DNA of 64,000 nt from Escherichia coli. Lineage in GTDB: Bacteria > Pseudomonadota > Gammaproteobacteria > Enterobacterales > Enterobacteriaceae. Made by a program: the position numbers. Location of the stretch: assembly GCF_016026235.1 (NCBI RefSeq), contig NZ_CP065614.1, one strand, 5' to 3'. Position 1 is the stretch's first letter. Each line of letters starts with the position of its first letter. This document shows, in pieces, positions 1 to 3,000 of this stretch.

Positions 1-3000
1 GACGTGGATATGAGTTTGGAGAAAGTCGGGTCATCTGCGGTGCGCATTGGCAAAGCGATGTAGAGGCTGGGCGTTTAATGGGAGCATCGGTTGTTGCAGT
101 ACTTCATAATACACCTGAATTTACCAAAAGCCTTAGCGAAGCCAAAAAAGAGTTTGAAGAATTAAATACTCCTACCAATGAACTGACCCCATAAAGCTGG
201 ACAGCCTGTATCAGGCTATGGAGGGCCCATAGACAAATCTACCCTATATGAGCATAGGAGGAGTCTATGGGCACACCACGTTTTACCCCTGAATTTAAGG
301 GATTACTGGAAAGGCTGGGACATATCCCTCCGGCAGAAGCAGAAAAAGCTTATTATGCTGCCATCGGAAACGATGATCTGGCAACCTGAGTTCACAGATA
401 AAACATTCTCTAGGAAACTCGGGGCGGTTCCGTTCACCACATGCAATGTGGTGTTGCAGGGGAACGGTCTGCACCATCCCCTATGTCGATCAATATAACA
501 GAAATGACAACTTCAGATTCAGGGCACAACCTAAATATATTTTAGGTCACCTCTCAAATCGTTTGCCTGATACCGCTCCATTTTTTAATAAAAAAATCAA
601 TCATTTTTGAATCTTTGCTTTTCATTGCATTGTCAAGCATAGTGTCCCCACTATTTGCTTTTTGAAATTTTTTGTTTACATCAACCAATCCATTATTGAT
701 AAAATATTCTAGCACTTTATAGTTGGCACCATCTTTACTAAGTAAGTATTCAACATCATACAGATTACAATATATATTGTTGTTCATTTTCTCCATCTCT
801 GCGACATCTTGTTTTGTAAAATTAAATTTAGATAGTAAATAAAGTGCTATATCAGCTTTTTTATCGCCTAAAGAATAAGCAAGGGCCTGATGAGCCATTT
901 TTTTATCAGTCACTTTATTGTTAATCTCTTCATAATTAGATGCTTTAATCGCATCCTCCAAAGATATGTCTCTGAGTTTTATTTTTTTGAAGTTATCTGT
1001 ACTTAGCATTCTTGGTATATGATACTCAAGCTGAAACACAAAGTTTATAATTCTATCCAGACTAACAGGATCAATGTTTTTGTTATAACAAAACTCTCGG
1101 AATCCTTGATCTTTACTCTTTCTTATAAAATCAATAAGATGCAACCCAATTCCAAGCCTCATATCTTTAGTGTTAAATATTGGAACATCAGTTTTCCCCT
1201 GATTACCATGCACATACCTGCTAACTTCATCCACAACCTCTTTAAAGTTATCTAAGAAAAATGATTGGTGCTCATGGTAAAAAACAGGTGGAATAGCATT
1301 ATCAAAGTGATCGGTTAATGTCATATATCCATATGGAGAGTCATGATCAATGATATACGCATTGGCGCCAAAATCTACAGTATGATGTGTTTTATTTAGT
1401 GGGAGTTTTTCTTGATGATTGGAAATTTCAACCCCAAAAAAACAAAATCGTGGTTAGAGATTTCTTTAATATCCTCAGAGTATGTATTCTTATGTGTTTG
1501 TATATTTTCAGACTGAATTTTATCAAAGGATTTAATATTAAGAATATTATTTGACAGATTAGAGTTACTTTGATGTCTGAAGTTAAAATTAGAATTAATA
1601 ATAATAGAAAGTAAGTGACGTTCGTCTGAAGAAAGAGGATGAACTTTTTGTATTATCTCAGAGATATAGTGTCTGGACACCTTATCGAGATGCTCAAGTG
1701 ACCGAAATGATGACCGTGCTCCAGATGGCGCTTCAATAGAAAGATTTAGTGATTTGAAACTGGTCCCTTGAGAAAACATTTTGCTATAACTTTGCGCTGC
1801 TATAGACTTCCTTAAAAAGTTTTTCACAGTATTAGCACAGTGATCTAAATGTTTTTCACTTATGCCAGAAGAAGATGAGTTTGTTACGCGTAATATATTT
1901 TTTGTAATGCTTTTGTTGCTTTATTCGGATTCGTTTTTCCATCAACAAGATCAATATTATTCTGAACATTAATATGATTTACTGCTTCAGGTATTTTCAT
2001 AAAATATTCCCCATTATGTGCGTTTTTATCTATGGTTATTTAGAATATATTATCTAACTTAATATTTTCTTGTGTGTATTATAACGAAATGAACATATTT
2101 TAATATGTTGTACAATTTTCACTCTGAAATCCCCTGAAATTAATCACACCTCCTTTACTGAAAGGAATTATTGCAACGGTATTATTTGTTTTTGGATATA
2201 TATCTTGCGCCTTGTTATGTAGTTAATCCTCAGAATATGATAGATAAAATAGAGACACAGAGCAGAGCGTGTTCTAACATCATGATAACATAAAATAATT
2301 AGTAACAATAAATGAAAGAATCATGGGAGCTCAACAAAAAGAGAGCTAAATAGCTGTGTGGAATAGTAGATCACTTTGGCGGTATAATGGCAGATGGTCT
2401 GCATACTTTCCGGTAACAACATGGGCCAGAAGCCCCGCTCCGGCATAACTGCGTGCAATGGGTTTTGAAGGCACCGGTGCCTGCACGATATGGTCGCACC
2501 GGCGACAGGCCAGTTTAGGGCGTTGTTTTTCGATAACCTTAAAGGCGCTGCTGATAAGCTCCAGCTGCTCTGACACATCACATCCCAGTGGACTGAGTTC
2601 ACCACCACAGGCCGGACAGCATTCCTCTTCCGGCCGGATGACCCGGGGGGCACGGGGAAGTGAGGCTGGTAACGGTTTACGGGCTGAAGACTGGCGCAGG
2701 GAAGATGGCAGTACCGGGTCATATTGCTCACCCAGTGTTTCCGCCATTTCCTCCTGAAGTGCGCTGATTCGCTCCTGTGCTTCCTGTATCCGCCGTTCGG
2801 TTTTTGCGCGAAGTTTTTCTGAGCTTTTACCGAACTGCATACGCTGCAGTTTCGCGACCAGCGCCTTCAGTCGGTTGATTTCGGAAGGCCTGGACAACTG
2901 AATCTGCGACCCAGACCTGATTAGGTGCTGTGGGCGTAAAGTTCTGATTCAGCAGATTCGGCGTAACCGGCAGATTGTGGTCAGAGTTTGTGGTCGCCCT

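Follow-up and report, generated by a model that had tools for sequence, protein, structure and literature searches.

A 40-codon open reading frame between phoN2 and ospC4 on the virulence plasmid pINV is probably an in-frame fusion of two IS3-family remnants

The open reading frame (ORF) described here lies between the phosphatase gene phoN2 and the effector gene ospC4 of pINV, the virulence plasmid, rich in insertion sequences (ISs), of Shigella and enteroinvasive Escherichia coli (EIEC), within a 64,000-nucleotide stretch of E. coli DNA (RefSeq assembly GCF_016026235.1, contig NZ_CP065614.1), referred to below as the window. It occupies positions 267–389 on the plus strand, starts with ATG and encodes 40 amino acids (MGTPRFTPEFKGLLERLGHIPPAEAEKAYYAAIGNDDLAT). 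Very probably, the ORF is an accidental in-frame fusion of 11 codons from the start of an ISEc15-like orfA with 28 codons from the end of an IS629/IS1203-like orfB, and a fossil without a function of its own. The NCBI annotation pipeline (PGAP) calls it as the hypothetical protein WP_000537156.1, which in the RefSeq pINV records is identical to the ORF in coordinates and sequence and whose annotation is silent on origin; judged from the comparisons reported here, this protein is a remnant of an IS–IS fusion. The original prediction had described a 40-aa ORF with a consensus AGGAGGA upstream of the ATG and with no obvious family. The ORF and its initiation signal exist as described, and both of its halves have clear IS3-family parents.

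Searches with the peptide itself gave little. The only match from Pfam hmmscan, to UBA, fell below threshold (E 0.15; 12.4 bits, with the cut-off at 22.4), and NCBIfam hmmscan returned no match. This silence is explained by the peptide being too short and outside the modelled domains, and the origin was solved instead by comparison of the DNA, for which window 195–560 was used as a megablast query against 72,556 plasmids. Query positions 31–106 (window 225–300) matched loci annotated as "IS3-like element ISEc15 family transposase" at ~92–94% identity. The ISEc15-like left-end fragment extends over 219–300 on the plus strand, shows 93.7% identity to ISEc15 copies of Klebsiella and E. coli in an alignment of 79 nt, and contains the inner left inverted repeat, the native Shine-Dalgarno sequence (SD) at 256–262, the ATG at 267 and orfA codons 1–11 plus one nucleotide. 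An intact ISEc15 copy from a Klebsiella plasmid was taken as the parent for comparison. The stretch AGCATAGGAGGAGTCTATGGGCACACCACGTTTTACCCCTGAATTTAAGG, which comprises the 5' untranslated region (UTR), the SD, the ATG, 11 orfA codons and one further base, is identical in the intact element and in the window. From this common stretch the intact orfA continues as AAGAGGCCGTCCGC and encodes the OrfA protein MGTPRFTPEFKEEAVRQITERGYS, with whose N-terminus residues 1–11 of the peptide are identical at 11 of 11 positions. It had been proposed that the ORF might be the start of a truncated gene, and this stands in part, as the first 34 nt are an authentic ISEc15-like orfA start; the break lies at 300|301 and not at the boundary of the downstream duplication. 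The original prediction had itself named one finding that would refute it, a segment that turns out to be the 5' end of a longer, known gene interrupted at this site, and this is what was found.

The window shares with ISEc15, over 225–300, the same inner left inverted repeat, 5' UTR hairpin, SD, ATG and 11 codons. Unlike ISEc15, it retains only ~76–82 bp, with the outer inverted repeat missing or deleted and 3 nt deleted upstream of the SD at ~249, and it has lost everything from orfA codon 12 onward, including the helix-turn-helix (HTH), the −1 frameshift site, the DDE orfB and the cognate right inverted repeat. By this comparison the piece is a remnant and not a complete element. ISEc15 belongs to the IS407 subgroup of the IS3 family. 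At the left boundary, homology is firm from 225, and no alignment was obtained for the outer ~14 nt of the left inverted repeat of ISEc15; the TGGAG at 219–223 may be the IS tip, with ~9 nt of inverted repeat deleted. A 12-nt identity (GAACTGACCCCA) between the 3' end of phoN2 and the sequence upstream of the Klebsiella ISEc15 was rejected as being at chance level (E 0.88, with an equally good random 12-mer). A promoter scan of the intact ISEc15 5' end found none, and the native orfA promoter was not located.

Two further points concern ISEc15-like left ends elsewhere. The ISEc15 copy of Klebsiella plasmid NZ_CP073789 (2447–2527 of the extracted stretch) carries its first ~41 nt (TGGAGTGACCCCGAGCCCGTAGACAAATCTGCCCTATAGT) in tandem, giving a doubled left inverted repeat. 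Another left-end remnant, with identical SD and ATG, is present in 86 records of Yersinia pCD plasmids; in Y. pestis pCD (NZ_CP010246; 2480–2620 of the extracted stretch) it ends after ~26 orfA codons and lies between yopO/ypkA and repA. The pINV and pCD remnants together indicate that one IS lineage has left scars on two different enterobacterial virulence plasmids encoding type III secretion systems.

The second half of the ORF has a different parent. Query positions 107–236/248 (window 301–430/442) matched thousands of IS629/IS1203 copies at ~89–94% identity, and the IS629/IS1203-like right-end fragment, supported by both DNA identity (90.8–93.8%) and a peptide match, extends over 301–436 on the plus strand. 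It contains the last 28 orfB codons, the stop codon TGA at 387–389, the 3' spacer and the right inverted repeat at ~407–430. The CGTTCA at 431–436 follows the right repeat and is also an IS-end remnant common to the locus of an ospC paralogue described below. Alignment of window 301–430 with an intact IS1203 copy from an E. coli plasmid, taken as the parent, covers the orfB end NNRRLLGRLGHTPPAEAEKAYYASIGNDDLAA*, the 3' spacer and the right terminal inverted repeat CTCTCCAGGAAACCCGGGGCGGTTCA. Residues 13–39 of the peptide match the IS1203 OrfB C-terminus at 24 of 27 positions (E = 2e-16), and the remainder of the ORF is therefore the in-frame tail of a second transposase gene and not random read-through. 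As in IS629/IS1203, the orfB tail, stop, 3' spacer and right inverted repeat are present over 301–430/436; unlike in the intact elements, only ~130 bp remain and the terminal base region is irregular (GGTTC-CGTTCA). The IS629/IS1203 left inverted repeat, orfA, frameshift site and DDE core are gone, and the sequence upstream belongs to a different IS. Among the matches listed from the plasmid and E. coli collections, those to IS629-like copies outside pINV do not exceed 94% identity, which indicates that the right-hand donor was a diverged variant of the IS629 kind, distinct from the IS629/IS1203 types sampled.

The two fragments meet in a blunt junction at 300..301: among the matches listed or inspected, those to ISEc15 end at 300 and those to IS629/IS1203 start at 301. 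The G of orfA codon 12 (Gaa) and the GA of an orfB Arg codon (cGA) together form GGA (Gly12), so that the frame is kept, presumably by chance, at roughly 1 in 3. A single parent IS with an internal deletion was considered and rejected, as the 3' end of ISEc15 itself is unrelated to window 301–436. No record outside pINV matched both halves, among the matches listed or inspected. From these two observations it follows that the halves derive from two different IS3-family elements.

We infer the following order of events. An ISEc15-like IS3-family element would have resided just downstream of phoN2, with an IS629/IS1203-like element beside it. A deletion, probably by illegitimate recombination, would then have removed the DNA from within orfA codon 12 in the first element up to the last 28 codons of orfB in the second. 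What remains is ~80 bp of the left end of the first element, in which the ribosome-binding site and ATG of that element are kept, fused at 300|301 to ~130 bp of the right end of the second. A ribosome starting at the former orfA ATG would reach the former orfB stop after 40 codons, and the product would consist of 11 OrfA residues, the junction Gly and a 28-residue post-catalytic OrfB tail, without the OrfA HTH and without the DDE catalytic domain. The strong SD is the native signal of the transposase gene. No pre-deletion intermediate, in which phoN2 is followed by a longer ISEc15-like element, was evident among the 132 records for window 1–700, the 132 for 195–560 and the 131 with the junction.

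The distribution of the junction was determined with an E-value cut-off that only junction-spanning matches could pass. The junction-bearing ORF is present in 131 plasmids at 132 places; 123 of these plasmids are from Shigella (S. flexneri, S. sonnei, S. boydii and S. dysenteriae) and eight from E. coli (EIEC). It was found in 8 of 5426 complete E. coli genomes, at one place each and always plasmid-borne. In every record inspected it adjoins phoN2, and the number of records covering at least 80% of 195–560 (n = 132) equals that for the whole phoN2–ospC4 stretch 1–700. Neither the plasmid nor the E. coli genome searches gave homologues of the ORF as a unit outside pINV. The junction is a single-copy, pINV-specific scar. 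Its presence in plasmids of the four Shigella species and EIEC suggests that it probably predates the divergence of pINV.

Several pINV plasmids carry altered versions of the ORF. In EIEC CFSAN029787, one T is missing at codon 10 and the frame is shifted; three further EIEC plasmids gave the same 134-nt, 99.3% match, the sequence having been read in CFSAN029787 only. In S. dysenteriae 2017C-4522, one C is missing at codon 8, and in S. dysenteriae NCTC 9718 there is a 13-nt deletion; both shift the frame, and two other S. dysenteriae records share the NCTC 9718 partial match. The ORF of S. dysenteriae ATCC 12039 differs by two substitutions (A32S and T40A), both non-synonymous and both toward IS1203. 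At the DNA level (window 361–386) these are GCTGCC to GCTTCC and GCAACC to GCAGCC, both restoring the IS1203/IS629 consensus, which points either to ancestral states that were retained or to gene conversion with resident IS629 copies as donors. All of the substitutions seen in the ORF across pINV variants are non-synonymous. Purifying selection was not evident across pINV carriers, in which there are three frameshift or deletion variant types and two non-synonymous substitutions, and the variants read as those of an unconstrained remnant.

The AGGAGGA lies at 256–262 and is separated from the ATG at 267 by GTCT, a spacer of 4 nt (5 nt from the GGAGG core) where 6 nt had been given before. The spacing is near-optimal in geometry. 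The motif AGGAGG-N3-9-ATG is uncommon in the window, with three occurrences on the plus strand and six on the minus strand, and its presence here is accounted for by inheritance, because both the intact ISEc15 copy and the Y. pestis pCD remnant have AGCATAGGAGGAGTCTATGGGCACACCACGTTTTACCCCTGAATTTAAGG unchanged. The SD and ATG lie within an inverted repeat (219–234/263–278) and are paired in a predicted RNA hairpin at 225–272 on the plus strand, with an outer stem GCCCATAGAC/GTCTATGGGC of 10 perfect pairs. The RNA 225–272 folds at −23.1 kcal/mol (z = −4.84; none of 200 shuffles as good), giving a predicted hairpin whose 10-bp outer stem is GCCCAUAGAC/GUCUAUGGGC in RNA and in which the AUG and most SD bases are paired. 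Intact ISEc15 is predicted to fold in the same way (−24.4), as is the Y. pestis pCD remnant (−16.9), whose changes are G-U-compatible, and the hairpin skeleton is kept in six more diverged relatives. A covariation check of nine relatives found 14 pairs kept and no compensatory change, which neither supports nor refutes the fold. For transcripts that start upstream of 225, such as phoN2 read-through, which would include both arms, the placement of the SD and ATG in a predicted stable hairpin makes efficient translation doubtful. Stem-loops of this kind at the 5' end are an established means by which ISs keep transposase translation silent. In IS10 and IS50, the transposase start is protected from outside (read-in) transcription by a fold-back structure. 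In IS200, a near-consensus transposase SD is strongly repressed by a stem-loop (PMC4513863). As at IS200 tnpA, a near-consensus SD would be sequestered in the window by a stable hairpin, which also takes in the start codon and has its 5' arm close to the IS end; in contrast to IS200, occlusion at the window hairpin is predicted only, with no compensatory changes among the nine relatives.

Transcription of the region was considered from consensus scans of window 1–700. These found no sigma-70-like promoter on the plus strand upstream of the ORF and no terminator, including between phoN2 and the ORF; the scan reports none at the hairpin because no U-tract follows the stem. An Rfam search of 1–700 gave no match at E ≤ 1. 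The ospB and phoN2 genes are reported to be transcribed as a bicistronic mRNA of ~2 kb (PMC3937361), a size that does not tell whether this mRNA extends into the ORF. A search for ribosome profiling of pINV gave no data set.

Some of these observations weigh against the reading of the ORF as a functionless fossil. Most pINV plasmids carry the ORF intact and with 100% identity, and PGAP calls it as a protein; the plasmids are very closely related, so that such identity says little. Some of the 1-nt deletions lie in homopolymer runs and may be assembly errors, a caveat countered in part by the four EIEC plasmids with the same one-base-shorter match. The hairpin is predicted only, and diverged relatives show no compensatory changes. 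The ORF could also ride on the virulence-regulated ospB–phoN2 transcript, with no terminator detected between. There is a slim chance that the fusion, lying on the tail of that transcript, matters to the cell in one of two ways, either through a 40-aa peptide that is coming into use by Shigella or through a hairpin that sets the 3' end or stability of the phoN2 mRNA.

The first of these is quite improbable. It would have the chimeric ORF translated and put to use as a small protein, perhaps as the third cistron of the VirB/MxiE-regulated ospB–phoN2 operon, and thus as a de novo gene from IS debris. The near-consensus SD, the good spacing, the ATG, the intact state in most pINV plasmids and the PGAP call just mentioned, the lack of a terminator-like site after phoN2, and a ~2-kb mRNA that would end near or within the ORF region are all compatible with it. 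They are set against at least three frameshift or deletion variant types, substitutions that are all non-synonymous, an SD and ATG within the predicted hairpin (about −23 kcal/mol), and peptide halves that both lie outside the functional domains of the parent proteins; the domain searches yielded nothing beyond the sub-threshold UBA match. The earlier suggestion of a small regulatory protein fares no better, given a start in a predicted hairpin, a frame broken in variants and no homologues as a unit beyond pINV. Its alternative, a leader peptide, is excluded by the gene order, as ospC4 lies next on the opposite strand and converges on the ORF, leaving no co-oriented downstream gene for such a peptide to regulate.

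Somewhat less probable again is that the IS-derived hairpin at 225–272, and not the peptide, has been retained as a 3' stabilising stem-loop or as a processing or termination site of the ospB–phoN2 mRNA. The fold is strong, its start lies 31 nt beyond the phoN2 stop, a transcript of the reported 2 kb could end at about this point, and 1–700 holds no canonical terminator elsewhere; yet the stem is followed by no U-tract and was not reported by the terminator scan, Rfam gave no match, and the structure is fully explained by IS inheritance. That the ~215-bp unit 219–436 might be a miniature non-autonomous IS, resembling a miniature inverted-repeat transposable element and mobilisable in trans by transposases, is effectively refuted, for although IS left-end and right-end sequences stand in the correct relative orientation, the ends come from different IS lineages and share no mutual inverted repeat, the ISEc15 left repeat lacks or has lost its outer ~14 nt, and the unit, at its 132 places in 131 plasmids, is beside phoN2 in every inspected record and not dispersed. 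The reading as an accidental IS–IS fusion remains by far the best account of the ORF.

The neighbourhood of the ORF is that of pINV. Window 1–700 is 100% identical to positions 2918–3617 of S. flexneri 2a str. 301 pCP301 (AF386526) and also to many other pINV plasmids. The 3' end of phoN2 (apy), which encodes a PAP2-family periplasmic phosphatase/apyrase, occupies 1–194 on the plus strand, with the stop TAA at 192–194, according to the AF386526 and RefSeq pINV annotations. On the other side, ospC4 extends over 554–1828 on the minus strand and is a frameshifted pseudogene, split between two frames with ORFs of 256 aa and 143 aa, and carries the PGAP note "frameshifted". It has also been termed a pseudogene in the literature (PMC5364150), although AF386526 annotates it as a continuous 424-aa coding sequence.

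The 3' flank of ospC4, at 431–553, begins a duplicated segment shared with an ospC paralogue, as found by sequence match. Window 431–2300 and 8323–10189 are 94% identical, and the paralogue, at 8439–9893 on the minus strand, is an intact ORF of 484 aa, 7.9 kb from ospC4 and 94% identical to it. The old AF386526/PLSDB gene table does not name this paralogue ospC and gives only a "conserved hypothetical" SF_p0014 in another frame. The duplication boundary had been put near 411 and is placed here at 431; as the break that created the ORF lies at 300|301, the truncation is unrelated to this boundary.

Both ospC loci (407–450 and 8290–8345) have an IS629-like terminal inverted repeat against the same flank, CGTTCA|CCACATGCAATGTGGTG. 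At the ospC4 locus the adjoining repeat is the right repeat, preceded by the orfB tail, and the IS end reads GGTTC-CGTTCA, as though two IS ends overlap. At the paralogue locus the sequence is of the left-repeat type in reverse complement, AGTCTCCAGGATTCCCGGGG-CGTTCA, and the sequence before it resembles an internal fragment of IS1. The common ospC flank is palindromic (CACCACAT-GCA-ATGTGGTG). The repeat and palindromic flank suggest two independent insertions beside a hairpin-like target, or a more complex rearrangement. Further along, window 2300–3600 on the minus strand is IS-dense, with IS600 orfA and orfB ORFs at 3299–3586 and 2827–3249, respectively. An ORF at 2346–2897 on the minus strand resembles a fragment of an IS66-family transposase, apparently nested or truncated. 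At 3654–4450 on the minus strand, a 160-aa ORF and an upstream 107-aa ORF resemble a pair of GNAT toxin and ribbon-helix-helix (RHH)/DUF1778 antitoxin, similar to TacT/TacA or to the maintenance system gmvAT of pINV.

Overall, the 40-codon ORF is no new small gene but ordinary debris on a virulence plasmid rich in ISs, and WP_000537156.1, which is spread over more than 100 RefSeq pINV records, would best be relabelled as an IS3-family remnant or pseudogene. On IS-rich plasmids, a consensus SD followed by an ATG is no proof of a gene, as transposase starts are often strong on paper and yet structurally occluded, and deletions between IS copies can produce in-frame chimeric ORFs. The phoN2–ospC4 interval of pINV probably owes its present form to two or more elements of the IS3 family and to the loss of DNA between them.

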